64,000 nucleotides of DNA from an uncultured Candidatus Saccharibacteria bacterium (GTDB taxonomy: Bacteria > Patescibacteriota > Minisyncoccia > Phycocordibacterales > UBA2100), in assembly GCA_964471165.1 (NCBI GenBank), contig CAYYEX010000004.1:22378-86377 (forward strand). Direction: 5' to 3'. Below, one piece after another: positions 11,982 through 49,688 of this stretch. The notes beneath the pieces are model-generated. The model had not been told where the DNA came from. It was given only the letters and a program-made list of their open reading frames with translations, and made no database searches. The translations under genes were made by a program, and so were the position numbers. Each line of letters opens with the position of its first letter. The first letter of the stretch is position 1.

Positions 11982-12698
11982 TTAGAGAATGACGTCGGCG
12001 TTCTTGCCGGTAGCAGACCAGCCGTCATGATTGTTGAACACCAGGTTTGTCCCCTCTTTCATCTTCATCACTTTCTCAATCAGTTTTTCCACGAGCGCCT
12101 TCGGGTCAGAATCAAACACGATATTGGTATTTGGGCGGTGTGCAGCATCAATAATGAGTTCCAAAAGTTCGTCGGTATCAGACGCACTACGAAGCACGCC
12201 TATCGGGCGGTGGTCTTCAAACGCGACGGCAAACTCATTGATGGTTCCAATACGGCCTGGGCCGATAATCATTGCATCGGACGAGCGCACAAACAACAAG
12301 TCGCGGCCGGAATAGCCGAAACCGGTGTACATAACCACGTCCATGTAGTCGAGCGGGAGCTGGTAGGTTTCCACGTGCTCACGCTCGGTGGCTGCTGGGG
12401 AAAATCCGATTGAAAACCCGCACTCATCTTTTGCCCCCATTGCCGCATAGAGTGGAAAGCCTGTTGTTGCTCCCGTGGTAATGATTGCGCCGTGTCGCGC
12501 AATCTCGCGACCGATTTCCTTTGCCTTCTCAAATGCATCGAGTCCGGCATACGTGGTGTCGGCCGCGCCAGAGACACCTATTTTCACAACACCATAACCG
12601 TCAGGAAGCCGACAGAAGTTCTGCGGTACTGCAGTGTGATTCGGATGGAGTAACTTCTTCATCATCGTCAAAATAGTATACCACTTCTGCGTATACAA
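11982..12698 (-). CDS. TIGR00725 / SLOG-LOG-like Rossmann-fold nucleotide-binding protein
   Basis: IGVSGAADTTYAGLD...AIITTGATTGFPLYAAMGAKD...MIIGPGRIGTINEF fits the LOG/TIGR00725 pattern. Confidence 0.55.
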   Translation of the reverse strand: MYTQKWYTILTMMKKLLHPNHTAVPQNFCRLPDGYGVVKIGVSGAADTTYAGLDAFEKAKEIGREIARHGAIITTGATTGFPLYAAMGAKDECGFSIGFSPAATEREHVETYQLPLDYMDVVMYTGFGYSGRDLLFVRSSDAMIIGPGRIGTINEFAVAFEDHRPIGVLRSASDTDELLELIIDAAHRPNTNIVFDSDPKALVEKLIEKVMKMKEGTNLVFNNHDGWSATGKNADVIL

Positions 12699-12699
12699 A

Positions 12700-14079
12700 T
12701 CAGAAATTAATTTCTTGAACCTCTGCTTTCTTTGGCACGACCGCCTCTACACCAAGAAAATCCTTGATTCTTTGCCCAAGAAACAGCGAGGCCTTTGTTT
12801 CCCCCATCGTTACAAATACTTTTTCGAGCGATTCACCCGCATTTTCTACGAAGTTCATCAGCTGGTCGCGGTCGGCGTGTCCGGAATAACCGGTAAGGCT
12901 CCCAATTTGGGCGTGAACGCGAATGTGCTCGCCGTCGACGGAAACGTTCGGCGCGCCATCCTGCAATCTTCTACCCAATGTTCCAGGTGCCTGGTAACCC
13001 ACAAAAAGCACGCTCGCCTTTTTATCGCCAAGATAGTACTGCTCGTGCGAACGAATGCGACCGCCCGCCGACATTCCTGCTCCCGCAATAATTACTTTTG
13101 GATTTTCTTCTTTATGAATTGCTTCGGAGTCGTGCTTATTTTTAGTGATACTGAGCCCTTTGAACGTAAACAAATCATCCCCAGCCTGAATGCGCGCAGA
13201 TGCCTCTTTGTTAAACCACTCTGCATAGGCCCGAAACACCGGCGTAATTCGATTTGCGAGCGGCGAATCAAGATAGATAGGGATTGGACGCATGGAACCA
13301 TCCTCAACCATGTTGTTTATCTCATAGAGCAGCACTTGGGTGCGCTCAACGGAAAACGATGGAATCAGCAGCACACCGTTCTTGGCACGCGTCTCCTCAA
13401 TTGCGCTGCGTAGGCTTTCGGTGCGCGCCGCACGCTCTTCGTGCAGCCGGTCTCCGTATACGCTCTCCATCACGAGATAGTTTGCACCTGCTGGCGACTC
13501 GGTATCGCGCAGAAGCGGTTCCGGTGTGTTGCCGAGGTCGCCGGTAAAAATTATAGTTCGTCCGTCGCGAGTAAGGCGCACGAGCGCAGAGCCCAGGATG
13601 TGCCCAGCGTCTTGAAACTCCACACCGACATCTTTGATGGTAAATGGCTCGTGATATCCGCGTGATTGCCACTGCGTAATTGCTTGTTCCGCATCTCGCT
13701 GCTCGTAGAGCACGTCGCAGCCGTGTTTCTCGGCCTCCACCTGCATAATCCCGAGGGCATCCCGAAACATAATTTCTGCAATATCACGCGTAGCTCCCGT
13801 GGAGTAAATGGGCCCACGGAATCCTTCGCGAACAAGACGCGGAATGCGTCCGATGTGGTCGGCATGCGCGTGCGTGATTATGAGCGCGTCTGCATGAATA
13901 ACATTCTGGGCGAATGTTTCAAAGTTGACGGTATCGCACACCATTTCCTGCGCGACAGTTCCGCAGTCGACGACAATCTTTGCACCGGCTTGCCCTGAGC
14001 TTGTCGAAAGAGTGTCCAGTAAAAAGTTAGCGCCCGTCACCGAGCCTGCTCCCCCATAAAAAGTGATGGTCGATTTCAT
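12700..14079 (-). CDS. MBL-fold beta-CASP ribonuclease (RNase J / CPSF-like)
   Basis: ITFYGGAGSVTG...ALIITHAHADHIG...FQDAGHILGSA; a C-terminal RMMBL-like region. I chose the MKSTITFYGG start to avoid overlap with the next gene; the ORF-track start is 14112. Confidence 0.75.
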   Translation of the reverse strand: MKSTITFYGGAGSVTGANFLLDTLSTSSGQAGAKIVVDCGTVAQEMVCDTVNFETFAQNVIHADALIITHAHADHIGRIPRLVREGFRGPIYSTGATRDIAEIMFRDALGIMQVEAEKHGCDVLYEQRDAEQAITQWQSRGYHEPFTIKDVGVEFQDAGHILGSALVRLTRDGRTIIFTGDLGNTPEPLLRDTESPAGANYLVMESVYGDRLHEERAARTESLRSAIEETRAKNGVLLIPSFSVERTQVLLYEINNMVEDGSMRPIPIYLDSPLANRITPVFRAYAEWFNKEASARIQAGDDLFTFKGLSITKNKHDSEAIHKEENPKVIIAGAGMSAGGRIRSHEQYYLGDKKASVLFVGYQAPGTLGRRLQDGAPNVSVDGEHIRVHAQIGSLTGYSGHADRDQLMNFVENAGESLEKVFVTMGETKASLFLGQRIKDFLGVEAVVPKKAEVQEINF

Positions 14080-14438
14080 ATCGATTTTCTTGCCATGCGC
14101 CATGCAACCCATCCGCCGATTGCATCAACAACCATGTCTTTCGTTGTATCGAGCGTGCGACTCATGTGTGAGGAAATACCCCACCCGAGGGCATATTCAA
14201 CTACCTCAACGAGTGCCCCGAGAATCAGCGCCCCGAGAATCGCATGCACGAGCGAAGCACGATGTATCAGTGCAAGCGCCCACCACAAACCGATTAATCC
14301 GGCGAGCACCCCACCGAGAAGATGATCCACATTGTCGGTCCACCAGAATTGCGTCGACAGCCCATACCAGATGTCGATGAACAGGATTCCAGCAGTGAGG
14401 ATAAAAACGTACACACCCCACATAAATATTCTTCGCAT
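14076..14438 (-). CDS. small integral membrane protein (3-4 TM), family unknown
   Basis: Hydrophobic throughout, with W-rich helices. A hairpin with a U-tract sits 22 nt upstream (see 14461-14486). Confidence 0.4.
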   Translation of the reverse strand: MRRIFMWGVYVFILTAGILFIDIWYGLSTQFWWTDNVDHLLGGVLAGLIGLWWALALIHRASLVHAILGALILGALVEVVEYALGWGISSHMSRTLDTTKDMVVDAIGGWVAWRMARKSI

Positions 14439-15045: not shown

Positions 15046-15666
15046 TTATTCGAAAATGTTTTCGAGCTCTTTGGCGTAGATGATTTCTTCGTGACTCACC
15101 TTGTAGTCGATGAGTTCCTCCTTGGAGAACCAGTGCGGAATTTCCATGTTTGCTTCTGCAACGGAACCAGAGCCATGAATGAGGTTTCGTACCGCCCGGT
15201 CGTCGTTGTCAGACATAACATATGAGTCAACAACGAAGTCTCCGCGGATGGTGCCTACCTGCGCTCCGCGCGGCTCGGTGCCGCCCGTTACTTTGCGCAC
15301 CAACTCAACAGCGTGAGCACCCTGCCACACCATAGCAATTACCGGTCCTGCAGTGAGGTACTTCTTGAGATTTTTGAGGATTTTTGCAGTAATTTCAAGC
15401 GGGTCTTCAGACGGTGGCGTGAGACCACGGTCTTTGTAACCCTTAATCGTCTTTTCCCCGGTAACACGGCGCCACTCCGGATCGAGTGTGTAGTGCCCTT
15501 CTACCTGTTCCTGGGTCGGGACCATGAGCTTCATGCCCACGAGCTTGAGGCCAAGGCGTTCGTAGCGACTGAGGATTTCTCCTACGAGTGCGCGCTGAAT
15601 GCCGTCTGGCTTGATAATAACGAGCGTGCGCTCGCGAGAAGGATGCGATGAATCTGTTTTTGTCAT
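15046..15666 (-). CDS. ndk: nucleoside diphosphate kinase (longer than usual, with an insertion)
   Basis: TLVIIKPDGIQRALVGEILSRYERLGLKLVGMK...NLIHGSGSVAEANMEIPHWF; catalytic His context NxxHGSD. Confidence 0.9.
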   Translation of the reverse strand: MTKTDSSHPSRERTLVIIKPDGIQRALVGEILSRYERLGLKLVGMKLMVPTQEQVEGHYTLDPEWRRVTGEKTIKGYKDRGLTPPSEDPLEITAKILKNLKKYLTAGPVIAMVWQGAHAVELVRKVTGGTEPRGAQVGTIRGDFVVDSYVMSDNDDRAVRNLIHGSGSVAEANMEIPHWFSKEELIDYKVSHEEIIYAKELENIFE

Positions 15667-15739: not shown

Positions 15740-17071
15740 TCAACCTTTTCCCTGCCCCGGATCGACGGTAAAGAGTACTGTCCCCTGCGCAGTGTTTATC
15801 GAAGTCACGTCGATGATTAAGCTCCCTGTCGAAGAGAGTGCGTCCGAAATACCGCCTCCTTGTGTGAGCGGCATGCCTGCGCGCGCATTGTAGTAGCTTG
15901 GCGCATACCCCGCAGGCGAAAGCATCACACTCGCTGTCGTATATCCAAGCGAGTCCATAGCGATTGCCTGGAGAGTAAGTCGAATGCCATTTGCTCCGTC
16001 AGTCGCTGTTTGTCCCTCCACGAGGGTAAAGGTGGTGTGCGAATTCGGCGCAAAAGAAACATCTTGCGGTATCGCAGGTCGTACGTTTACGTACAACGTC
16101 TTACTCGCAGCCGGGCCATCTTTACCATTTCCAGGCTCATTTACGCACCAAAGTATGTAGCTGGTCGTTTCAGTTGGATGCACAACCTGCGTTCCTTGTG
16201 CAGGCATCCCACCGATTTCGGTTGTACCGAACTTAAGTACGCATCGGTTTGCATATACAGCATTCCACGAAAGCGTGACACCCTGTCCGGCATGAATATC
16301 CATCGGCGAGGTGGAAAAGCTGATTACGGGAGTTTGTTGCGGGGCAACGTACGTTGGTGTTTTCGTTACACCACTAATGAGTTCCTGAAGTGTATAGAGG
16401 CCGTCGGAGAACTGAAAGAGTTCGACGCTCACGATTGTATCGGTGTCGGCACGACACGCTACCGTATCGCGGAGTGTTAGTGAACCATTTACATTCCGAG
16501 TCGCGACAAAGTCGGAGCGCTTCCCGGTGTACGAGAGCGTGTCAGTTCCATCCCCGCCGTCGTAGTAATCATTGCCATTTCCGCAGGAAATGCTCACAGG
16601 CGCAGTGTGAGTCGTCGGTTCGAAAAATGCACCGCATGCACGGGTGATTGCTACACGCGTGAGAGAACCAACTATCCCGAGTGCAGGGAGACCATTTTCG
16701 CTTTGGAACTGCACAACGTAACGTTGCGTTGTTTTGCCAAAGAATCCGGAAACTGCCACGTCTTCATCGAGGTCATAGCGGTCGGCCAGAAACCGTTGGA
16801 GTTCGGTGACTTGCCCTCCAGTGCGAGCGTCTGTGGCACCGCGCTGGAAGGTGGTTCGGAGGCTTGGGCAGTAGTAGCTCACCCCCTCTCCAGTACCGTA
16901 GTCGTCCGGAAGCGCAGAAGCGGCACCGGCGGTAAGCGCGGCTTTTGTGGCAGTAATCTGAACAAGGAGGGCTTCGATATTCGCTTTTAGTTCTGCTGTT
17001 GTGAGCGCGGACGAGAACGATGGAGCGAGCAAGAGTGTGGAGAGTGCGATTGATATGGCAATTTTGCGCAT
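15740..17071 (-). CDS. secreted protein with a peptidoglycan-binding (PG_binding_1-like) domain
   Basis: Signal peptide. GATDARTGGQVTELQRFLADRY...SGFFGKTTQRYVVQFQSENGLP is typical of the PGBD; the C-terminal half is uncharacterised. Confidence 0.55.
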   Translation of the reverse strand: MRKIAISIALSTLLLAPSFSSALTTAELKANIEALLVQITATKAALTAGAASALPDDYGTGEGVSYYCPSLRTTFQRGATDARTGGQVTELQRFLADRYDLDEDVAVSGFFGKTTQRYVVQFQSENGLPALGIVGSLTRVAITRACGAFFEPTTHTAPVSISCGNGNDYYDGGDGTDTLSYTGKRSDFVATRNVNGSLTLRDTVACRADTDTIVSVELFQFSDGLYTLQELISGVTKTPTYVAPQQTPVISFSTSPMDIHAGQGVTLSWNAVYANRCVLKFGTTEIGGMPAQGTQVVHPTETTSYILWCVNEPGNGKDGPAASKTLYVNVRPAIPQDVSFAPNSHTTFTLVEGQTATDGANGIRLTLQAIAMDSLGYTTASVMLSPAGYAPSYYNARAGMPLTQGGGISDALSSTGSLIIDVTSINTAQGTVLFTVDPGQGKG

Positions 17072-17114
17072 AAAAAGTACGTATGATTAATACGTACACG
17101 ATAGCATGTGCGCT

Positions 17115-17504
17115 CTATTGGCGCGGGAGCACGATGATTGTTTGGTCGCAGGTTACTTTTGTGCCGTTCGGGCCAAAAAACGTGAAATGGTACACGCGCG
17201 CCTCTGGTGTGTTAAGCAGCATCTGCTGCTCACCGTTTTGAGAATAGGCATTTTGCGGGTCGGTGGAATACGATGGTTCTGCACCAAATGAGCCCCATGC
17301 AATCGTAAATGGCTCTCCTGCCATCACCGTGCTCTTTGTGGCCGTAACGGCACAGTTGATGGTTTTGTGAGCGAGAATCGCTTCGAGCGCCGCTATGCGC
17401 GAGAGCAGCTGCCCGAGTGTAGGTTGAATACCAAACGAATCCGCTGATGCGAGCGTCGGGGCGAGAAGTGCGACAAGGACTATGGACGCAAGGATTCTTT
17501 TCAT
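17115..17504 (-). CDS. small secreted protein (signal peptide), hypothetical
   Basis: MKRILASIVLVALLAPTLASA signal peptide, then a 100-aa domain with 2 Cys. Confidence 0.4.
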   Translation of the reverse strand: MKRILASIVLVALLAPTLASADSFGIQPTLGQLLSRIAALEAILAHKTINCAVTATKSTVMAGEPFTIAWGSFGAEPSYSTDPQNAYSQNGEQQMLLNTPEARVYHFTFFGPNGTKVTCDQTIIVLPRQ

Positions 17505-17550
17505 TCGGGCAGTATACCTCGCTGCAAAAGAAATCCCATGAAGCTGGTGG

Positions 17551-20355
17551 CTATTTCATTATGGAAGAGAGCGGACTTTTCACTGGTGTGCCGGCATCTC
17601 CCAGACCAAACTTACGTCGAATCATCGACTCCACTTCTTCTCTCGGCGTGCCGTAGCGTTTGTACGAGGCTTGTTTTATCGCCTCGGTCCTACTATGGTC
17701 AAAGTTTGGCAGGTTCTCTGTTTCAACAGTGAAGGGTCGTGCGGGGACGCCGTTTACCAGGAGCGATACGATACCGGTTCTGTTGGGCAAGTTCTCAATG
17801 TCTTTGGCAGTGAACTCCGGTGAGAATTGTTTCTCCAAAAACTCTGCGTCCGTCGTACCAATACGCATCGCAATTTTTGTTCCGACGTTACCGATAACCG
17901 CATCTCGGATGTCGTCCTCGAGCTGTGCCATAAACTGGTGCGCAACAGTGAGCGAGAGTTTGTATTTACGCGCCTCAGAGAGAATGGTGGAAATGGATGG
18001 TGTGGCAAAGTTCTGAAACTCGTCGATATACATATAGAACGGTGGCAAGACCGCGCGCGTGTCCGCGCGCGAAAACGCAGCCTGTAGGAACTTTGAAACC
18101 AACACTAGACCGAGCAGAGATGCGTTTCTGTCTCCCAGGCGACCTTTTGAGAGGTTGGCCAAGAATATTTTCTTATTGTCGAGAATGTCGCGGAAATTGA
18201 ATGCAGATTGCTCCTGCGCAACAATCGGACGCATGATGTCGTTGGCAAGAAAGACGTCGAACTTACTCGTAATGTACGGCGCGATGCTTTCGAGGCCAGC
18301 GTCACCCTCTGCCGCTTCTGCTATTTTGCGCCAAAACTGCACGACTATCGGATTGTTGCAGCGAGAGATTTTGAGGTCACGAAACGCTTTGTCTGCAAAA
18401 ACTCGCGGCAGTTCCAGGAATGTGTTGCCGGTTGCTGGGTCCTCGACCACAAGCTGCACAGCATTTCGGTAGTACTGTTCAAACATCGGACCGAACGCTT
18501 CCGGCACATCCGAATAGAGTTTGCGAAAGATTTCGTAGACCTCGTCGATGACGAAGGTCTTCATCTCGGGTTTGTTGTGGTCGTATTCGAGCATGTTGAG
18601 ACCCATCGGCATCGCGGTGTATGCGGGGTCAAAATAAATCACGTCATCGAGACGGTGCTCCGGTATTGCAGCCAAAATGTCTTCGATATCGTTGCCGTGT
18701 GGATCAATAAACGCGACCCCCTCCCCGTTTTCGATATCCTGCAGAATCATGTTCTTGATGAAGCCTGTTTTTCCGGTACCAGTCTGGCCGATGATGTAGC
18801 AGTGACGCAAGCGGTCCGCGACGGCGAAACGCACCTTTGTTTCGTCGGCTCCATAGCGGTTGATACCAAGGGAGATACCTTCGGTCGAAATTTCAACTGG
18901 CGCAGGAGCCTGTTTGCCCTGCGATTTTTTCAATTCACGCGATGTGGTCACACGCTCCGCAGTGAAGTGGAATATGGCGTTGATTTCGGCAAGTGAGAGC
19001 GGCATCGCTATCGAGGAGTCGAATGAGCGGTAGGTAAATTCATGCAGGAATCCCGTGAGACTCCAGCTCGACACCCGCTCAAATACAAAGTGATTTCCGT
19101 TGGGATTGTCGTATTGATGCAGAGCCGAGATTAGATTTGAAACCATCTCCTCGGCACGAGGCGCAACGTGGGCCGAAGCCACAAGCCGAATCGAAACCGG
19201 AGCGATTCTCGTGCGCACCTTGCGCGACATTTCATCGAGAGCAATCTTATCAACGGCATGCTTGTCCTCCGGCTTATTGCTTGAGCCCGAGAAAATGTGC
19301 TTTGAAACATCGCGAAATATTTCTCCCACTTCAGTTTCTGGGGCCTTGAGGGCTTGGTTTATCGGAACACCGTTTTCTACTTCTCGAATCATCTTCTGAT
19401 AGTGTTTGTTGTAACGATCACCTTCGGAGCCTACAGTGAGTTGGAGTGCGGCGCCTTCACCATGTTTGGCGATTTTCGAAAAAGCAGCCAGGAGAATGTT
19501 CATCGGGTCATGCTCAAATGCATCAGGCGTCTTTATCGGGAACGCCGGATGCTTTGCGAGCTTGCCGTAGGCCGCAGCATGCGAGCCTTCATAATCAAAA
19601 ATGTTGTAGTCGCCACGGCTCTCGGAGATTGTTGCGTTCGGGAAGACCGACGATATGAGGCGCTCCGCAAGAGTTTTCTTTGCTCGTGGTACCGCGAGAT
19701 AGAGGGTTGCGCTCTCGGAGCCCTGCGGCACGGCGATTTCAAGAGAAAATCCTTCGTCGTGGTCAATCAAGGACAAGAGCCCGGCATAGAGCTGCTCAGA
19801 TGGCGCGAGCATCTGCTCAAGCTTCACTGCACCCTGTTCTTTTGCCCCACTTTCAGCATGAGCCTGCGGGCGCACCTCGAAGAGCACGAGATGAAGCGCT
19901 CGTTTGACCTTTTCGGCAACAGAGGAACCTTTATCGGGCAAACCCTCGGCAATATAGCGCACGAGCACGCGGTGAAAGTCGTCTTCGAGATGCGGATTCT
20001 TGAGCCGCGCTGCGACCGAAAGCGCATTCCTGATTCCCTGTGTCTCGATAATACTCAGTAGTCCGTCGAGCTGTTTATCATGCGCCTCTGGTTCAAGCTT
20101 CATAATCTGCCGCATTGTTTCGTGCTCAGGCATCACAACTGTTTCGTGCAGGATTGTTGCTGTGGGAATATCGGAGTATTCAACAATTTCGCGCTTAGCG
20201 ATACGCTCTGATTCAAACTTTCCTGGCTGCAGCGATAGTTCGCGCTCTTTCTGCGCGACCTGCTCACGTAGGTATGCGAGTTCTTCCTCGGCGGATTTTA
20301 ACTTTTCAGAATTGGCACGCGGCGTAATACGCTCGCTCAATATGCGCGGCTCCAT
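17551..20355 (-). CDS. 934-aa P-loop ATPase with a C-terminal TraD/TraG/VirD4-like (type IV coupling protein-like, FtsK-HerA superfamily) domain
   Basis: Walker A IIGQTGTGKTGF, Walker B MYIDEFQNF, and a TraG-family HQ..QL motif (AHQFMAQL). The N-terminal ~470 aa are uncharacterised. Confidence 0.6.
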   Translation of the reverse strand: MEPRILSERITPRANSEKLKSAEEELAYLREQVAQKERELSLQPGKFESERIAKREIVEYSDIPTATILHETVVMPEHETMRQIMKLEPEAHDKQLDGLLSIIETQGIRNALSVAARLKNPHLEDDFHRVLVRYIAEGLPDKGSSVAEKVKRALHLVLFEVRPQAHAESGAKEQGAVKLEQMLAPSEQLYAGLLSLIDHDEGFSLEIAVPQGSESATLYLAVPRAKKTLAERLISSVFPNATISESRGDYNIFDYEGSHAAAYGKLAKHPAFPIKTPDAFEHDPMNILLAAFSKIAKHGEGAALQLTVGSEGDRYNKHYQKMIREVENGVPINQALKAPETEVGEIFRDVSKHIFSGSSNKPEDKHAVDKIALDEMSRKVRTRIAPVSIRLVASAHVAPRAEEMVSNLISALHQYDNPNGNHFVFERVSSWSLTGFLHEFTYRSFDSSIAMPLSLAEINAIFHFTAERVTTSRELKKSQGKQAPAPVEISTEGISLGINRYGADETKVRFAVADRLRHCYIIGQTGTGKTGFIKNMILQDIENGEGVAFIDPHGNDIEDILAAIPEHRLDDVIYFDPAYTAMPMGLNMLEYDHNKPEMKTFVIDEVYEIFRKLYSDVPEAFGPMFEQYYRNAVQLVVEDPATGNTFLELPRVFADKAFRDLKISRCNNPIVVQFWRKIAEAAEGDAGLESIAPYITSKFDVFLANDIMRPIVAQEQSAFNFRDILDNKKIFLANLSKGRLGDRNASLLGLVLVSKFLQAAFSRADTRAVLPPFYMYIDEFQNFATPSISTILSEARKYKLSLTVAHQFMAQLEDDIRDAVIGNVGTKIAMRIGTTDAEFLEKQFSPEFTAKDIENLPNRTGIVSLLVNGVPARPFTVETENLPNFDHSRTEAIKQASYKRYGTPREEVESMIRRKFGLGDAGTPVKSPLSSIMK

Positions 20356-20470
20356 ATCAAAAGTATACCTCGTGAGATATGCAGTCTGATTTGCATGGCG
20401 CGGTATAGCGGGGGTATCTCATGGGGTATAACCTACCCCAAATCGAGGAGTGCGCGGGCGCGGGTATACG

Positions 20471-23801: not shown

Positions 23802-24941
23802 TTATGCAGCTTTCTTTTCTTCACCCTCCGGCAGCATCATGCGCGCCGTCTCGAGTGTCTCCTCATTCAGTTCCATTAGGCCCACCTTACGACCGTCCGG
23901 GAGTGTGACCGAGGCATTCTGCACAACCTCCAAGAAATTACCTCCCCACGTGTTGCCGTGAATCTTGCCGCCGATTTCCGATATCGCTTTTTTCGCCGTC
24001 GACTCAGATATCGGAAACTCCTGTCCCTTTATAGTTATTGTGACAGTGACCGGTGCGCGCTCTTTCTCCAATTCCGTGAGCTTAATCAGCTCGACTTTCG
24101 GGGAAATATGCATGTATCCGGCCTCATTGCGGTTGTAAATTGAATCGCCGTAGTTGTCGCTCTGACGGAAGAGAAATGGCGCCCGCACAATATCATCGCT
24201 ACCACGCATGAGCTCGGCGAATTCCGGGCTCACGACCGTATAGTTATATTCAGGCTTTTTGATGTATTCTAATCCCCCATCCTCTTCCTTGAAATGAATC
24301 TCTGAGCGCATCAAATACTCGGCGCCTTTCGCTTGCGCCTCCGCCACTGCAGCATCACGCGCCATGCCGGGTCGGCTGCGGTAAAAAGTCTTTTTGGTCT
24401 CGATGGGCGCCGCGCCAGGACCAAAACCGATTCTTGTTCCTGCAGGTACCAGCACCGCCGCAATTTCTGATTCAATTTGGCTTTGGATTGAGCGTTCCCT
24501 GCCGTTCTCACGAGACGCATAGAACGAGTACTCCGGTAACAAGTCCCCGCCATCAATCGCATCCTCAAGACGTTCGACATCTTTGATGAAAGTTTCGATT
24601 GGGCAGGGGGCCGCTTCTATCCCTTGCGCCGCGGCAACAACTTTCAACTTTTCCGTGTATTCATTGTATGCGGCTGCAATATATTCCGCTTCAGAAATAA
24701 TGTCCTCTCGAAATTTGCCGTATACCGCATCAAGATTCAGTGCGTTACTCTCGGCTGTCATCTGTCGCTCTGTCTGCCCACGGAACCCGATACGCTGGAT
24801 AAGCACCTTCTCTATGGCCTCTTTGTCAGCAGCGGCAGTTTCTAACTTTGACTCGGCCATTGCCGCCGTGAGGTCCTCCGAGGTTCTTTTGTTCTTAAAA
24901 GCATCAAATTTTTCCATATATGAGAACGGTAGCACACGCAA
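23802..24941 (-). CDS. hypothetical protein inserted between secY and gmk (the track start is TTG; an internal ATG at 24917 is also possible)
   Basis: ORF only; acidic, probably alpha-helical, no recognisable motif. Confidence 0.35.
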   Translation of the reverse strand: MRVLPFSYMEKFDAFKNKRTSEDLTAAMAESKLETAAADKEAIEKVLIQRIGFRGQTERQMTAESNALNLDAVYGKFREDIISEAEYIAAAYNEYTEKLKVVAAAQGIEAAPCPIETFIKDVERLEDAIDGGDLLPEYSFYASRENGRERSIQSQIESEIAAVLVPAGTRIGFGPGAAPIETKKTFYRSRPGMARDAAVAEAQAKGAEYLMRSEIHFKEEDGGLEYIKKPEYNYTVVSPEFAELMRGSDDIVRAPFLFRQSDNYGDSIYNRNEAGYMHISPKVELIKLTELEKERAPVTVTITIKGQEFPISESTAKKAISEIGGKIHGNTWGGNFLEVVQNASVTLPDGRKVGLMELNEETLETARMMLPEGEEKKAA

Positions 24942-42753: not shown

Positions 42754-43560
42754 TTAATGTGGACGCGCTTCAAGCGCGGCATCAATCTTCTGACGGTTCT
42801 CATAAATCGCGTTGCGCAGCGTCTCGAGTCCGACTTTGGCCGCGCGTGGCGCGTTACCCGGATAGGCATTGTGCCAATCTTGTTCACTGAGTGCGTCAAC
42901 ACCGAGAGATGCCAATCGCGCTGCCTCCGCCGCCTCACGAAGACGTCCCAGTTCGTAGAGTGTGGTTGCACGCACACTCAGGAGCCAAGGATTTTCCGGA
43001 TGCAGGACAAGTCCGGAATCGATATTGAGCAGCGCCTCGTCAAAGCGACGCACTTTTACCAATGCCCACGCGTAGTCGGTGCGGCCCTCCCACCCTTCTG
43101 GATGCATTGATACATATATACCGTAATCGCGCGCTGATTCCTCGGACATGCCGAGATACCCCTCAATCAAACCTCGCAGGTAGTATGGCGCGGACTGTTC
43201 TGCTTGTGCTTGTTGCTGTATTTCCACATTCACCTCTGCAAGCGCCTGTTCGTAATCACCATTCAAGAAATGAATGCGCGCAAGCTGATGGTGCGCCATC
43301 GGGTAGTTCGGTTCGAGGCGCAGTGCCGTTTTAAAGTAGCTCTCGGCTCTCGCAAGGTCGTACGCCCGCCCCGGAACATTAATGTGGCCAATGCCATATG
43401 AGTACGCCCGCTCAGCAGAAGGAAAGAGCGCAAATGTAATGCGCTGAAAATTGAGCACGAAAAGTGCCACGACGACGCAAATAACTACAACTCCTGCACG
43501 CATGTACGAGAAACTTTGCATCTCAGCTATTGTACCGTGACGACCATTTTTGGCTCTCAT
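42754..43560 (-). CDS. membrane-anchored TPR-repeat protein (tandem paralog A)
   Basis: N-terminal TM, then TPR-like helices. It aligns throughout with 43557..44366 (e.g. YYLRGLIEGYLGMS vs YYVKGLIEGFMGSY; HPENPWLLS vs HPKNPWLLN). Confidence 0.6.
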   Translation of the reverse strand: MRAKNGRHGTIAEMQSFSYMRAGVVVICVVVALFVLNFQRITFALFPSAERAYSYGIGHINVPGRAYDLARAESYFKTALRLEPNYPMAHHQLARIHFLNGDYEQALAEVNVEIQQQAQAEQSAPYYLRGLIEGYLGMSEESARDYGIYVSMHPEGWEGRTDYAWALVKVRRFDEALLNIDSGLVLHPENPWLLSVRATTLYELGRLREAAEAARLASLGVDALSEQDWHNAYPGNAPRAAKVGLETLRNAIYENRQKIDAALEARPH

Positions 43561-44366
43561 TCGTGTGAACTCGACGCGATGTAGATTTCGATTTTTTCAA
43601 AGTTAAATCTCGCAGCGTTTTGAAGTGTCAGAATTCCTGCCGCAGTAGTGTTTGGGTCGTTACCGGGATACGCCGCCCACCACGTTTCCTCATTCATCTT
43701 GAGCGACTCCTCTTTTGCAAGCGCAGCAACCTCAAGTGCCTCGGGGTAACGCTTCAGCTCAAACAACGCCGTTGTCTTACTGTTGAGAAGCCAAGGGTTC
43801 TTAGGATGCGTTTCAAGTGCGCGATTCAATACAGTGAGTGCCTCGTGCGGACGGTTTCCTCGAAGGAGGACCCAAGCATAGTCGTTCAAGCCCGCCCAAT
43901 TATTAGGATCGGATTTCAGAAACTGCTCGTAACTCAACGCCGCGTTCTGATACGAGCCCATAAACCCCTCTATCAACCCTTTTACATAGTACGAAGACGG
44001 CATTGGTTCCGCTGTTATGAGGAGTTCGGTATTGATGTGCGAGAGCGCCTGTTCGAATTGTCCGCGCAAGAAATAGAGACGGGCGAGATGGTGGTGTATG
44101 TGCGGATACACAGTATCAATTTGCTGCGTCTTATCGAGATACTTCCCCGCCCGACGTATGTCGTATTCCTCTGGAGAGCGAGCATCAAGGTGCTTGATTG
44201 CGATTGTGTACGCGTGTTCTGCTGTGGGATTTACAGCAAAACGAATATCCTCGTACGCATATCCTGCATATCGTGGGATGCTATTTATGCCCACAGCAAA
44301 AAGCGTAAGAACAAAAACTCCGGTCAGGATCCACTCTCGTTTTATTCCAGACGTTCTGCGCGTCAT
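43557..44366 (-). CDS. membrane-anchored TPR-repeat protein (tandem paralog B)
   Basis: See the previous entry; 4-nt overlap (translational coupling). Confidence 0.6.
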   Translation of the reverse strand: MTRRTSGIKREWILTGVFVLTLFAVGINSIPRYAGYAYEDIRFAVNPTAEHAYTIAIKHLDARSPEEYDIRRAGKYLDKTQQIDTVYPHIHHHLARLYFLRGQFEQALSHINTELLITAEPMPSSYYVKGLIEGFMGSYQNAALSYEQFLKSDPNNWAGLNDYAWVLLRGNRPHEALTVLNRALETHPKNPWLLNSKTTALFELKRYPEALEVAALAKEESLKMNEETWWAAYPGNDPNTTAAGILTLQNAARFNFEKIEIYIASSSHE

Positions 44367-44378
44367 GTGACGAACAGT

Positions 44379-45545
44379 TTACTGCGTCTTCAGGTCGGGA
44401 ATCGCAAGTGCGAGCTCAATCGCTGCCTTAAAATCAGGAGAAACATTCATGACTTTCGTAAACGTTTTCCATGTCCCCTTCGTAGGGGCATTCTTTTCTT
44501 CGTTCCGGGCAACACGTATAAATGAAGATGTAAGCGGATTCTTTAGCGCACCCAACTCCTTTGCAAGCTGATCCGCCTGCTTCTTTGCAGCTACTGTGTC
44601 TTTATCGTACTTCAACAAATAGTGTGCATAGTACAATCGATCGAAGAATACATTGTTCATCGTTGATTCCGTGTTGGCCTCGAGTGCAATACGAATAGCC
44701 TCTTCGTGTGCCTCCTTGTAACGGGAGAGGTACTCCTTGTCCCCGCGAGCAGCGAGCCATGCAATCGCATGCGCATTCCAAAAATGATACTCGCTGTACA
44801 TTGGATCTTTCTTATAGTCACCTACCGCATTCTGTATCTCCTTCTCCATAAGGCTCTCGCCGAGCGCTACGTACTTACGCGCTGTAGCTCCATACTCCTC
44901 TCGACGTTCTGCGGAAAGTGAGTTATCGATTGCGTATTGCTGAGCATACCAACGCGCCACTCGCACCGCTGCAAAAGCCGTCGGCTTGACACTATATGAC
45001 CACTCGGCGAGATTTCGAGCGGACGCATCCGGATCACCGGGAGCTAGGTAGCTCGAAAAAGGCGCATCTTTATAGAGTTCAGCAAAAGCAAGTGGATCAC
45101 GGCCGGATGAACAATATGCGAACGCGAGCTTATTGAGTGCAAGTACACGCACAGTAAGATCAAGATTCGGGTCCAAAAAGACCTTCTTGAGCTCCTGTAT
45201 TGAAACAAGGATATCTTTCACGTCACCGCTCAACTTGAAGTTGACCTTAGTAGACCCGATGATTGCTAGTGCTTTCTCATTTGGAACGGCGTTCTCGTCG
45301 TTGAGAATCAAATCACGCTGCTCTCGTGCGGCCTGCCAGTCATTTTTGTTTTGGCTTTCGTAGAGCGCCAATGGCGCAAGATCACTAATGCCGCCCTTGG
45401 AGAGCGACTGGTTCAATCCAGTGTATACGGCATATAACGCCGCCAGAGCGATAAGTATTGCGACAGCTGTGCCAATATAGACCAGCTTCATGGGATGAGC
45501 TTCCTTCTGCGGAGTAGGATTTATAGGTGTAGTTTTATTTTCCAT
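44379..45545 (-). CDS. membrane-anchored hypothetical protein (388 aa)
   Basis: N-terminal TM (LVYIGTAVAILIALAALYAVY), then a large helical extracytoplasmic domain; no motif. Confidence 0.4.
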   Translation of the reverse strand: MENKTTPINPTPQKEAHPMKLVYIGTAVAILIALAALYAVYTGLNQSLSKGGISDLAPLALYESQNKNDWQAAREQRDLILNDENAVPNEKALAIIGSTKVNFKLSGDVKDILVSIQELKKVFLDPNLDLTVRVLALNKLAFAYCSSGRDPLAFAELYKDAPFSSYLAPGDPDASARNLAEWSYSVKPTAFAAVRVARWYAQQYAIDNSLSAERREEYGATARKYVALGESLMEKEIQNAVGDYKKDPMYSEYHFWNAHAIAWLAARGDKEYLSRYKEAHEEAIRIALEANTESTMNNVFFDRLYYAHYLLKYDKDTVAAKKQADQLAKELGALKNPLTSSFIRVARNEEKNAPTKGTWKTFTKVMNVSPDFKAAIELALAIPDLKTQ

Positions 45546-45557
45546 AGGAAAAATGTT

Positions 45558-45785
45558 TCAGCAACCGCCGTCGTCACCACAGCCGCAGGCTTCGGCGGAT
45601 GTGCTGTCACCAGCGCACGCCGGAGCATCCGCATGTGCAACACCGTCCAGCGGTGTTGCGCTCGATTGAGGATTTCCTTTCGAATTAATTCGAGAAGCGC
45701 CAAGCAATACTATTGCCATACCACCAACGATTAGCGCTGCATTTCTAATCTTCGCAAGCAGACTGTTCCGGCCAGATGAATCCAT
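45558..45785 (-). CDS. small protein with a Cys/Gly/Ser-rich C-terminus (PACAGDSTSAEACGCGDDGGC); candidate RiPP precursor divergent from the YcaO gene
   Basis: 75-aa ORF 36 nt from the YcaO start on the opposite strand. The C-terminal 25 aa are rich in azole-forming residues (5 Cys, Ser, Thr, Gly). However, an N-terminal hydrophobic helix and the lack of an SD sequence reduce confidence. Confidence 0.3.
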   Translation of the reverse strand: MDSSGRNSLLAKIRNAALIVGGMAIVLLGASRINSKGNPQSSATPLDGVAHADAPACAGDSTSAEACGCGDDGGC

Positions 45786-45821
45786 TTCGTTTATAGTAAC
45801 GCGGGTCTGGAAAAATCCACA

Positions 45822-47333
45822 ATGGTACGTGTGGATACGGGCAAAAACAACGGCCCCGAGCGCGTGACCCTGTGTGATATTATCGCGAACATGATAATAG
45901 ACGGTGAGCTGCTCTCGGATTCCGCCAGAAAGACCATGTCCCCGGGAGAATCCGCAGTGAGCGCCTTCATTTCATTCATTGAGAGAAGGCTAAACGTCAC
46001 GGTCGTACGCGAGCTGCGCAAATACACTTGGGGAAATCCGCGTCTAGCCTCGGCAGCCGAACTCGCAGTTCTTTTGCAAGATAGACACATCGCACAGTCA
46101 TTTCAAAGAATGTCCCAGCGCGCAGATGAACCACGCCTTCTGCGCTGGAATGCGGTAGGCTTTGGAGAGTCGGAACATCGTTCAGGCGGGGCTTCATTTT
46201 CCATCGAAGAGAACGCACTCTATGCATGCGTTGCAGAGTCTCTCGAACGGTATCTCTGGTCGGAGAAGTCCGATTATTTCCGAAAGCCGATGCACGGAAC
46301 CGAGCGTGAGGTGGGTTCACGCACCCCTATCATTCCAGTCGCACGATTCGCAGGATTTTCCTGCGAACAACGTGCACAAAACCCGAAACTCTTTATCTCA
46401 CCAGAGACATCTTTCCTGTGGATTGAGGCGGTCTCGGTTATAACCGGACAGAATGTCCACGTGCCAGCCCAAGTAGTCAGCGGCTACAACGATGCGCAGC
46501 GCACAGGTGTGCCTGCCGAGCCGAGCATCCGACCGCGGATAACAACAGGCCTCGCCACTTGGCGAGATGTTTTGGGAGCACGTCTGCGCGGTGCGCTCGA
46601 GGTGATTGAGCGCGACGCATACATGATTATGTGGCTCAATCAGCTCGTACTTCCGCGCATCAATCTCAAAGATATCTCGGCGAGAAATGCGGAAGTACTT
46701 CGCCAAATACAAAGTTGTGAACGCTATGGATTACGTGTTCATGCGATTCGTATGATTACCGACGCCCCCACATATGCAATATGTGTTGTTGTCGAAGATA
46801 CATATACTTCTTCGCCAAAATATTCGGTGGGTCTGAAAACTGGGCACTCAATCGCCGATGCTATTCTCGGGGCATTGTCCGAGGCACTTCGCGCACGTTG
46901 GAGCACTCGCCACAAAGTAGAACAAGGAACCTTGTGGGATGAAGCGCGCCCCGTTTCCGAAATTGGCCACACGGAGCGACTCGTGTTCTGGGCAGATGCC
47001 GGGCGTTCCCACAAACTTGATTTTTTGATTGCTGGACAAGAGACACGTTTTACTCCTGAGGAGTGGGAGTCTGACAGCGACGCGACTCATCTGAAACGCC
47101 TTGTCTCGTGGTGTAAAAAGACGGGCTACGAAATGATTTCTGTGGGACTCGACACTCCCAGCAACAATCCGCTGCCATGGCACGTGGAAATGACCATCAT
47201 TCCCGAATTACAGCCCATGTATTTGCACGAATCGAAACATGTTCTCGGAGGAACTCGAATCTCGACTATCCCGAGTATGTTCGGATACCCCGCGCGAGCT
47301 CCTTACCTCGATACCCCGCATCCATTCGCCTAA
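45822..47333 (+). CDS. YcaO-domain protein (azoline-forming cyclodehydratase family)
   Basis: SFSIEENALYACVAESLERY and ALEVIERDAYMIMWLNQ match the YcaO ATP-binding signatures (S...E..ERY, E.IERD). ATG at 45822. Confidence 0.7.
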   Translation: MVRVDTGKNNGPERVTLCDIIANMIIDGELLSDSARKTMSPGESAVSAFISFIERRLNVTVVRELRKYTWGNPRLASAAELAVLLQDRHIAQSFQRMSQRADEPRLLRWNAVGFGESEHRSGGASFSIEENALYACVAESLERYLWSEKSDYFRKPMHGTEREVGSRTPIIPVARFAGFSCEQRAQNPKLFISPETSFLWIEAVSVITGQNVHVPAQVVSGYNDAQRTGVPAEPSIRPRITTGLATWRDVLGARLRGALEVIERDAYMIMWLNQLVLPRINLKDISARNAEVLRQIQSCERYGLRVHAIRMITDAPTYAICVVVEDTYTSSPKYSVGLKTGHSIADAILGALSEALRARWSTRHKVEQGTLWDEARPVSEIGHTERLVFWADAGRSHKLDFLIAGQETRFTPEEWESDSDATHLKRLVSWCKKTGYEMISVGLDTPSNNPLPWHVEMTIIPELQPMYLHESKHVLGGTRISTIPSMFGYPARAPYLDTPHPFA

Positions 47334-47337
47334 ACAT

Positions 47338-48066
47338 ATGACTCGCTTCATTTCTCATCTTCACTCTGACTTGCGTCACGCACGCACCACGCGGCGAGGT
47401 GCTACAAAGGCTGCGTCAGAGGTGCCGCTTGGACTTCATAAAAAGTATCCGCGCATGAAGCGCATACCGCTGCCAGATGTGACACTTCCTGACGCAACAA
47501 TCACTGAGGTCCTCCGTACTCGTCGTTGCGCCGAGTACGGTGAAATTGCGTTCGATATTACATTCAAAGATTATGCCGCACTCTTCAGCATGACGCTCAA
47601 GCAGCATGAAAATACAAACCACCGTCCCTACCCTTCCGGAGGTGGACTCTATCCCATTGAGACATATCTGCTGACTCCTGTATTTGATAGCCAACCGGGT
47701 GGCGTATTCCACTACAATCCAAGCGAACACGCACTTGAATACCTGTGGCCACTAAAGGACAGTGCCGGTTTTAGGAAGCTTTTGCCTCGTGCAGAACCTC
47801 TTGAATTCAGCGCGCTGCTCGTTTTCACTTCGGTCTGGGACCGCTCCTCTGCCAAGTACGGCGATTATACTTATCCGTTCGGACTTCTCGAGGCCGGGCA
47901 CATGTCGCAAAATATTTTGCTCGCAGCCACAGCGCTCGGAATCGCAGCTCGGCCAATGGCCGGCTTCAACGATGGGGCGCTCATCGATAATCTAGATGTC
48001 GACCCCGACTACGAACAGCCTATTCATACCGTTACCCTATCGAAAACGCGCGAAAAACGCTCGTAA
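47338..48066 (+). CDS. SagB-type dehydrogenase (nitroreductase superfamily; azoline oxidase-like)
   Basis: RPYPSGGGLYPIETYL is the TIGR03605 hallmark (R.YPSAG..YP.E.Y). The ATG lies 4 nt after the YcaO stop. Confidence 0.65.
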   Translation: MTRFISHLHSDLRHARTTRRGATKAASEVPLGLHKKYPRMKRIPLPDVTLPDATITEVLRTRRCAEYGEIAFDITFKDYAALFSMTLKQHENTNHRPYPSGGGLYPIETYLLTPVFDSQPGGVFHYNPSEHALEYLWPLKDSAGFRKLLPRAEPLEFSALLVFTSVWDRSSAKYGDYTYPFGLLEAGHMSQNILLAATALGIAARPMAGFNDGALIDNLDVDPDYEQPIHTVTLSKTREKRS

Positions 48067-48101
48067 TTGAATATACGTGGCGACAGAGTATCCTGTCTCT
48101 C

Positions 48102-49490
48102 ATGCCGCTACTTTCGAAGAACTTTCCTCACCTCTCTCGTATCGTCTTCGAGATGCGTCGCGTCTATCGAAAACTGTTTTCCGTCCAGGAGATTGAGTCC
48201 TCTTCACAGCTCCAATGGATGCTCGGAGCATCACTCCTCTACCTATTTTTCACTTTCAACAACTGGGCGGGCAACACAAGTGTAACGGTCGAGGCGGCAC
48301 AACAGGGGCGAGCCGTCTGTTGGCCGTATTTTCAACATTGTTCGGATTACTTCTTCCTTCACATGTTGCCGTACGGGTATTCGCAGACAATTTTTTACAT
48401 GGTGCTCTACGGCGTGATGATGCTCATCGTCTGGGCCATGTGGCGACAGAAATGGACCACTGCACATGCACTGTACGCACTTTTGATTCTATGGGAGATG
48501 GCGGTCGTGTACGTCTTTTCTTTTCAGTCGGCAGCACCATACCACTACTATCACATCATTCTCGGATTGATGTTGATATTCGCGTCACACAAAGAGTTTT
48601 TCCTGAAACTTTCGTTCGTGCTAATGTACTTCCTTTCCGCCACAACGAAGATTGATTCCACTTGGATACTCGGTTCGTACTTTACGTCGCTCGAAAATGG
48701 ACTGCCGATTTTTCCCGGATGGTCTACACCGCTGCTTACCAACGCGGTGATGTTTATGCAGATGATAGGTAGCTGGTTTTTGATTTCAAAACGGGCTGCG
48801 CTGCGTCATATCGCGTTCGTGTACTTCATGTTCTTCCACTTCTATTCAGGTGTATTTGTGTTGTATGAATATCCAACGGTAACACTCCCGACCCTCGCAG
48901 TACTTTTTGGCCCCATGTATCGCTATACGCCGATTCCCTTTGGGAGAAAAACAATTGTCGGCTGGGTAATACTCGTGATTGTGTGTGCCGTGCAAGCATT
49001 GGGATTCATAGCACCCGGAGACAGACGCATTACGATGGAGGGAAACAAGTTCGGCATGTTTATGTTTGAGGCAAATCATCAGTGCGCCGTAACGATAACA
49101 AGCTACACGGACACAAAAGTTTCTTCATCGACTCCTGGATTTGCACCGGACGGTTGTTCGGGGCAATACTGCCACACGCGATCAACTTCAAAACGAACAG
49201 CTGGGATTCTCGCTCGAACTGATGTCTACGAAAGTGGCAGCTCATGGAACCGCTGCTATCCGTATATCTGGTGGTCGAAACTTCATCTACAGTGTGGGCT
49301 GCGCCCCGGTCTCACGCGCGTCGCATTGCGCATCGACCACTCAATCAACGGCGGCCCCTTCTACAGAATTGTCGATGAGCCCGACGTATGCTCCCTTTCG
49401 TATCTCCCATTCGGACCAAATTCTTGGATTAAAAGTCCACCAGAAGCCCCCGCGATAGGCTTACCGGTACGCAATGCGTATCACTACTAA
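48102..49490 (+). CDS. polytopic integral membrane protein (8 or more TM); possibly HTTM/VKGC-like, a family often seen next to RiPP clusters
   Basis: The N-terminal 300 aa are very hydrophobic and W/F/Y-rich; the C-terminal ~150 aa are soluble and Cys-containing. I cannot verify the HTTM assignment by eye. Confidence 0.5.
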   Translation: MPLLSKNFPHLSRIVFEMRRVYRKLFSVQEIESSSQLQWMLGASLLYLFFTFNNWAGNTSVTVEAAQQGRAVCWPYFQHCSDYFFLHMLPYGYSQTIFYMVLYGVMMLIVWAMWRQKWTTAHALYALLILWEMAVVYVFSFQSAAPYHYYHIILGLMLIFASHKEFFLKLSFVLMYFLSATTKIDSTWILGSYFTSLENGLPIFPGWSTPLLTNAVMFMQMIGSWFLISKRAALRHIAFVYFMFFHFYSGVFVLYEYPTVTLPTLAVLFGPMYRYTPIPFGRKTIVGWVILVIVCAVQALGFIAPGDRRITMEGNKFGMFMFEANHQCAVTITSYTDTKVSSSTPGFAPDGCSGQYCHTRSTSKRTAGILARTDVYESGSSWNRCYPYIWWSKLHLQCGLRPGLTRVALRIDHSINGGPFYRIVDEPDVCSLSYLPFGPNSWIKSPPEAPAIGLPVRNAYHY

Positions 49491-49688
49491 ATATGGAAGC
49501 AACTACTACGTATATTGTTCTGCGCGAGCTCGCCGGTAATTCGCCCAACTCGCTCAATGCCGTGCAGATGTTACTCGAGCCGCATATCGACCTCTTGGTG
49601 ATGCTCTGGCGTGTGGCATGGATATGCACCGCAGTGACCGTAATCGCAATTTACGCGCAGGCATATCGCAGACATCGAATGAATCGAT

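Follow-up and report, generated by a model that had tools for sequence, protein, structure and literature searches.

Type IV coupling proteins (T4CPs) of the VirD4, TrwB, TraG and TraD kind, covered by the profiles TraG-D_C, TrwB_AAD_bind and T4SS-DNA_transf, are among the closest described counterparts of a gene found in a stretch of 64,000 nucleotides from an uncultured Candidatus Saccharibacteria bacterium (contig CAYYEX010000004.1, assembly GCA_964471165.1), the whole of which is called the window below. The product of this gene, an ATPase of 934 residues, resembles T4CPs in its Walker A/B nucleotide-binding domain, which matches their profiles. It differs from them in having a soluble N-terminal region of about 480 residues (DUF8128) with no transmembrane domain, in lacking any linkage to a relaxase or to a type IV secretion system (T4SS), and in being encoded by a chromosomal core gene with a conservation like that of SecY.

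Patescibacteria, the group to which the window belongs, depend on host cells. In one tractable species the saccharibacterial T4SS is essential, but neither a coupling protein nor a relaxase has been recognised in its cluster (Wang et al. 2023, PMC10633639). A few T4CPs, TraJ of pIP501 for example, are reported to be anchored via a partner protein (PMC12857230). A survey of 2,918 Patescibacteria genomes listed 5,713 VirD4-type T4CP homologues, 148 of them near virB4, and raised the exaptation of these proteins (Quinonero-Coronel et al. 2025, PMC12102498). Its passages on T4CP homologues do not bring in DUF8128, the missing anchor, synteny with a ribosomal operon, how strongly the gene is conserved or its relatives in phages and plasmids. 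The gene of the window encodes a conserved orphan T4CP-like motor whose family, DUF and orphan status in Patescibacteria were already catalogued; the addition made here lies in how the gene is placed and conserved, and does not amount to a new kind of system. A soluble T4CP-like ATPase, conserved almost as SecY is in hundreds of Paceibacteria species, is an obvious candidate for the substrate-handling motor that is missing, or else for a part in a different core process, and in either case offers biochemistry and genetics something definite to work on.

An ATPase half of the VirD4/TraG branch

The gene and the parts of its product are as follows.

17551..20355, minus strand: gene of 934 codons for the DUF8128 and T4CP-like ATPase, ATG start, from the list of open reading frames (ORFs) and the translation
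19906..20355, minus strand: N-terminal helical extension, residues 1-150, all-helical in the model
18916..19905, minus strand: DUF8128 (PF26449) alpha/beta domain, residues ~151-480, from precomputed Pfam annotation
17608..18915, minus strand: VirD4/VirB4-type RecA-like nucleotide-binding domain, residues 481-916
18763..18789, minus strand: Walker A, GQTGTGKTG, residues 523-531, invariant across the family
18220..18570, minus strand: all-helical insertion, residues ~596-712, lying in the AlphaFold model between Walker A and Walker B, where T4CPs have their all-alpha domain
18007..18030, minus strand: Walker B, YIDEFQNF, residues 776-783, inside the TraG-D_C match
17920..17979, minus strand: SEARKY (residues 793-798) and AHQFMAQL (residues 805-812), together residues 793-812, invariant or nearly so across the family

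This is not a chance ORF, since a word-indexed search returned at least 884 homologues and the best 120 listed, each of about 930 residues, are 69-86% identical over their full length; those that are named come from metagenome-assembled genomes of Kaiserbacteria, Paceibacteria or the 'Patescibacteria group'. The motif set is complete for an NTPase, with Walker A, Walker B, a conserved arginine and HQ..QL. From their position in TraG-D_C, R796 is a candidate arginine finger and Q807 a candidate sensor.

Among profiles, TraG-D_C (PF12696) matches residues 772-842 with 33.5 bits against a gathering score of 22, and TrwB_AAD_bind matches the Walker A/P-loop region with 21 bits against a cutoff of 20.5. 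DUF87, restricted to the P-loop, stays at 22.6 bits, below its gathering score of 23.2, and the top NCBIfam matches, all partial, are to TraD, VirD4-like CD1115 and TrbC. By sequence profile, then, the C-terminal half is of the VirD4/TraG (T4CP) branch of the FtsK-HerA superfamily. The first-pass annotation, made from the letters alone, had described the 934-residue ORF with its Walker A, Walker B and HQ..QL motifs, which the translation bears out, and had proposed a VirD4/TraG-like P-loop ATPase, a proposal that TraG-D_C and TrwB_AAD_bind support at the superfamily level. It had also asked whether HerA/FtsK-type helicases would score best; once the search was run, the best profiles proved to be those of coupling proteins (TraG-D_C, TraD, VirD4-like CD1115), not of HerA/FtsK, which leaves the proposal standing.

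Searches of PDB sequences, whether started from the protein alone or from a profile, gave only P-loop-level matches, to TrwB and DotL. Structure prediction with AlphaFold2 was unusable when fed 32 close homologues at least 69% identical (predicted local distance difference test score, pLDDT, of 51), and reached a mean pLDDT of 88.6 with an alignment of 78 sequences that included divergent members. The ATPase half of that model has the fold of the VirB4/VirD4/HerA ATPases; in the fold comparison 361 of the 420 residues of TrwB align with it.

An N-terminal half shared with plasmid and phage proteins

The N-terminal half had been set down at first as novel and unrecognisable. It is in fact Pfam PF26449 (DUF8128), common to Bacillus phage and Firmicutes plasmid proteins, an uncharacterised domain, yet one already catalogued, and no paper mentioning DUF8128 was found. 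Precomputed Pfam annotation gives the protein of the window PF12696, preceded by a weak PF26449 match, and both domains are present in most of the 120 homologues listed. An exhaustive search with residues 1-480 matched 705 representative clusters, the domain being N-terminal throughout; 20 of the matches are full-length proteins of 793-1120 residues and the remainder look like fragments. E206, D249, Q305 and K379 are invariant in the 78-sequence alignment.

Distant relatives extend across both halves. PHROG_5156 matches residues 157-912 (E-value 4e-63). Profile alignment of the N-terminal domain with hhalign gave probabilities of 97.2% for an 800-residue Clostridium botulinum plasmid protein, 96.7% for an 886-residue Bacillus subtilis plasmid protein (NZ_CP032854, 'DUF87 domain-containing protein') and 94.1% for an 856-residue protein of Bacillus phage YungSlug, while the C-terminal domain aligned with these plasmid and phage homologues at 99%. 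In Foldseek searches gp156 of phage G and a 913-residue protein of phage JL match the whole model, the latter with a template-modelling score (TM-score) of 0.56 over 859 columns. These relatives, encoded on Firmicutes plasmids and by large Bacillus phages, have the same two-domain architecture as the protein of the window over residues ~190-915. They differ from it in being only about 20-25% identical, in lacking the conserved helical extension of residues 1-150 (the hhalign alignments begin at about residues 187-203) and in their setting, for they lie on mobile elements, some beside a relaxase, a VirB4 or a pilin-like gene, not in a housekeeping chromosomal block.

That setting is informative. 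On the B. subtilis plasmid the genes directly downstream of the homologue are those of a Replic_Relax relaxase, a TcpE-family protein, a VirB4-type ATPase (the true VirB4, with 389 bits on AAA_10) and conjugal transfer proteins; the homologue is the sole non-VirB4 ATPase annotated in the stretch examined, and it occupies the coupling-protein position of a conjugation module. A Herpetosiphon plasmid has its homologue two genes downstream of a VirB4-like gene. On C. botulinum plasmid pOsaka2020-1 the homologue overlaps an upstream gene of 133 codons (L004:8486-8887, plus strand) whose product scores 27.7 bits on the TrbC/VirB2 pilin profile, just under its gathering score of 27.9, and no other T4SS gene was found nearby. 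In phage YungSlug the genes before the homologue encode a peptidoglycan metallopeptidase and membrane proteins. From these contexts, the DUF8128-ATPase architecture appears to have had its ancestral setting in the machinery by which mobile elements of monoderms carry out transfer or translocation.

A core gene of Paceibacteria

The window is a chromosome segment of a Paceibacteria/Kaiserbacteria-like Patescibacterium, with a uniform guanine-plus-cytosine fraction of about 0.52. The ATPase gene sits, co-directional, at the tail of the ribosomal spc operon, in the order S8-L6-L18-S5-L15-SecY-(379 residues)-Gmk-Adk-Map-PurD-[ATPase]-129 residues-PG_binding protein of 443 residues-Ndk-...-beta-CASP-LDcluster4, after which L20/L35/IF3 follow on the other strand. 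Uniform composition and conserved chromosomal synteny led us to reject the idea that this copy came from a mobile element or prophage.

Members of the ATPase family were found in at least 573 genomes in a scan of GTDB species representatives. The counts of related loci given here and below refer to the best 80 of these relatives, 44-83% identical; many of their titles are generic, and the informative ones name Kaiser-, Nomura-, Zambryski-, Taylor- or Campbellbacteria, or Parcubacteria/Paceibacteria. About half of the 80 loci share a context, type A, that runs SecY-Adk-Map-(PurD)-[ATPase]-Ndk-c11-beta-CASP-LDcluster4-L20, Ndk being the gene most often found next downstream of the ATPase (36 of 80). 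In another context, type B, a Pif1 helicase and a small membrane protein lie upstream, and FKBP, TGT and UvrB downstream.

Type B loci also display a fast-evolving protein of 580-950 residues with a charged, coiled-coil-like N-terminus, which often starts 4-12 nucleotides past the stop codon of the ATPase gene (L042, L056, L057, L060, L061, L063, L067, L071, L080, L082 and L087). About half of these proteins have one hydrophobic segment in mid-protein, and the one representative scanned had no Pfam match. This is a possible membrane partner of the ATPase, with no equivalent in the window, where none of the eleven ORFs tested showed similarity to it.

Conservation was measured as median identity in 24 genomes carrying all the markers. 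The C-terminal half of the ATPase reaches 59%, the DUF8128 core 34% and the first 150 residues 44%, to be compared with 63% for SecY, 50% for Map, 49% for Ndk and 32% for Adk. The gene behaves as a vertically inherited chromosomal core gene, not as a mobile-element gene.

It also seems to be provided with a start of its own.

20362..20371, minus strand: GAGGTATACT, -10-like box ending 6 nucleotides before the ATG of the ATPase gene
17511-17520, minus strand: further -10-like box
12675-12684, minus strand: further -10-like box

An identical GAGGTATACT box precedes the gene of the 129-residue protein downstream. In the family, a TA[TAC]A[ACT]T box ends 6-9 nucleotides before the ATG of the ATPase gene in 59 of 74 loci, and 4-10 nucleotides before it in 61 of 74 (82%). 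At the start of comparison genes it was counted in 2 of 31 cases for Map, 1 of 20 for L20 and 6 of 27 for SecY; expressed as frequencies, Map, L20, FKBP and TGT have it in 0-8%, and Adk, c11 and beta-CASP in 50-62%. The box is a candidate for the ATPase gene's own promoter, possibly giving a leaderless mRNA, and its distribution suggests that Paceibacteria use gene-specific promoters yielding leaderless or near-leaderless mRNAs.

What the motor may do

The reading we lean to, tentatively and as something just short of an even prospect, is that of a soluble T4CP-type ring ATPase that delivers substrates to a chromosomal Patescibacterial T4SS, with DUF8128 as its docking or recognition module. 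By analogy with TrwB and VirD4 the ATPase would form a ring, and would spend ATP on binding DNA or protein substrates and on passing them on or driving them along. DUF8128 would replace the membrane anchor as a docking or substrate-recognition module, and the likeliest partner would be the chromosomal Patescibacterial T4SS (virB4 cluster) elsewhere in the genome. Published tables are in keeping with such a partner at a distance. KKS37798.1, the exact product of one of the related loci (L076) and 45-46% identical to the protein of the window, is entered in Table S3 of the 2025 survey as 'T4CP, t4cp1' with 86% coverage, not near virB4, with a VirB4 in the same genome (PMC12102498). The five related genomes checked are all scored virB4-positive in the same source. 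The first-pass annotation had suggested an orphan ATPase, and this applies to the window, where a scan of all 64 kb confirmed that no other T4SS component is visible, but not, going by those five table entries, to whole genomes.

To be sure, a number of observations weigh against a coupling protein. None of the curated NCBIfam equivalog or subfamily cutoffs for T4CPs is passed, the scores lying far below them (TraD 51.5 bits for a cutoff of 366, VirD4_CD1115 42.8 for 250, TrbC 33.6 for 800). The fold of the C-terminal half is about equally near to the VirB4 C-terminal domain, TrwB, DndH-C and HerA, so that structure alone does not separate these families, and it is the sequence profiles that favour T4CPs. 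No transmembrane helix is predicted in the 934 residues, where the highest 19-residue Kyte-Doolittle window is 1.3 and no segment is hydrophobic. Canonical T4CPs are membrane-anchored and fast-evolving, while this ATPase is soluble and changes about as slowly as SecY. The linkage of T4CPs to a relaxase or to VirB4, present for the distant B. subtilis and Herpetosiphon plasmid homologues, is absent here: T4SS, relaxase and pilin families were not found across the window, nor within 8 kb on either side in any of the 80 related loci, whichever their context. Finally, among genomes in the survey tables, the draft GCA_000997475.1 is scored virB4-negative and has T4CP-profile matches, and in Southlakia, the one genetically tractable Patescibacterium, a T4CP homologue that may or may not be a DUF8128 protein is reported to be dispensable while the T4SS is essential (PMC12102498).

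Several of these points fit a second explanation, the main rival and in our estimate less likely than the first, in which an ancient T4CP-like motor of plasmid or phage type was recruited as a housekeeping nucleic-acid translocase independent of any T4SS, for DNA uptake or processing in nucleotide salvage, or for chromosome handling. Recruitment to a core function would explain both the SecY-like conservation of the ATPase half and the place of the gene among translation and nucleotide-kinase genes, where about half of the loci keep the fixed block SecY-Adk-Map-[ATPase]-Ndk-...-beta-CASP with Gmk, PurD and SNase nearby. The promoter-like box, the want of T4SS genes beside the ATPase at all 80 loci and the virB4-negative draft go in the same direction, and exaptation is the notion raised by the 2025 survey (PMC12102498). 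However, the other half of the loci have unrelated neighbours (FKBP, TGT, UvrB, Pif1), and the kinase and nuclease neighbourhood may therefore reflect an inherited gene order and not a functional link. No DNA-binding domain was identified in the ATPase, and ComEC-dependent uptake is not essential in Saccharibacteria (PMC12857230).

A VirB4-type ATPase, active in machine assembly or pilin extraction and with its N-terminal domain of about 470 residues as the counterpart of that of VirB4, is improbable. The size and two-domain layout do resemble VirB4, TIGR00929 gives a weak match, and the top Foldseek matches in the PDB are full-length TrwK/VirB4 (E-value 2e-15, about 900 columns), with TM-scores to TrwK of just 0.28-0.33; the likeness of the N-terminal fold to VirB4 is ambiguous in the model. 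Compared with VirB4 proteins such as TrwK and PrgJ, the N-terminal domain has no sequence-profile similarity, hhalign against five of them giving probabilities below 1%; neither AAA_10 nor CagE_TrbE_VirB matches the ATPase, and no VirB3 adjoins it. Moreover, GCA_000998045.1, which has a confirmed member of the family, has a separate VirB4 listed in the survey table (PMC12102498).

Least probable is an anti-phage defence ATPase, akin to mad8 of MADS, to DndH/DptH or to HerA, a reading that the PADLOC mad8 match over residues 497-870 (E-value 1e-17) and weak HerA and DndH matches would favour and that we rejected on the housekeeping context, for defence islands are patchy, whereas hundreds of species keep this core gene in synteny with ribosomal genes; the ATPase lacks the N-terminal HAS-barrel of HerA and any NurA, other nuclease, Sir2, methylase or defence partner, and the three downstream neighbours scanned gave no PADLOC match.

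Returning to the delivery of substrates by a T4CP-like motor, or to its recruitment for another core process, a wider proposition would be that Paceibacteria fixed an anchor-less, plasmid- or phage-type VirD4-like motor as a near-universal, slow-evolving housekeeping gene that has a promoter to itself, possibly a leaderless one, and an important function other than conjugation. We find this doubtful as a whole, and worth stating for what it would entail. Such a motor could power the repurposed T4SS that episymbionts need on their hosts, or import and process host nucleic acids for nucleotide salvage, and DUF8128 would be a new docking or substrate-recognition module.

Neighbouring genes and other features of the window

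Immediately downstream of the ATPase gene lie the following features.

17115..17504, minus strand: protein of 129 residues with a Sec signal peptide, 46 nucleotides downstream of the ATPase gene
17077..17097, minus strand: terminator-like hairpin and T-run after the gene of the 129-residue protein, from a consensus scan in which the number of sites in the region is not above shuffle expectation
15740..17071, minus strand: secreted protein of 443 residues with a Sec signal peptide and PG_binding_1

The first-pass annotation had flanked the ATPase with a small secreted protein and a peptidoglycan-binding secreted protein. Signal peptides and PG_binding_1 agree with that description, and we rejected these neighbours as conserved partners, since they are lineage-specific or variable. 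A homologue of the 129-residue protein was found at 3 of the 80 related loci only; the 443-residue protein had no tblastn match in the 80 loci, and its slot is empty or holds a different protein in three close relatives (L002, L006 and L007). By eye, both have a signal peptide, an amphipathic helix (…L..I.AL.A.L…) and a beta-rich module with an 'AG.pFTi.W'-like motif, which suggests that they belong to one family of surface proteins in Paceibacteria.

Other members of the block deserve a mention. Between SecY and Gmk, an ORF of 379 codons (23802-24941, minus strand) has no Pfam match and is absent from the same three relatives. Ndk (15046-15666, minus strand), of 206 residues, matches the NDK profile in two stretches and hence has an insertion or extension with respect to the canonical enzyme of about 140 residues. 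The syntenic beta-CASP/metallo-beta-lactamase RNase (12700-14112, minus strand) finds its best NCBIfam match in the type VII CRISPR 'Cas14' (371 bits, below the cutoff of 800), followed by aCPSF1; it is probably a housekeeping nuclease resembling RNase J/CPSF, whose place beside the LDcluster4 protein is conserved.

Rfam and tRNA scans of the window gave no matches. Farther away, at 42754-51326, a cluster comprises two TPR proteins, a protein of 388 residues, a YcaO protein (45822-47333), a nitroreductase-family protein (47239-48066), a protein of 462 residues and a PQQ-like beta-propeller (49689-51326). Its make-up resembles that of a YcaO-type cluster for the biosynthesis of azolines or of ribosomally synthesized and post-translationally modified peptides, seemingly unexpected in a reduced genome.

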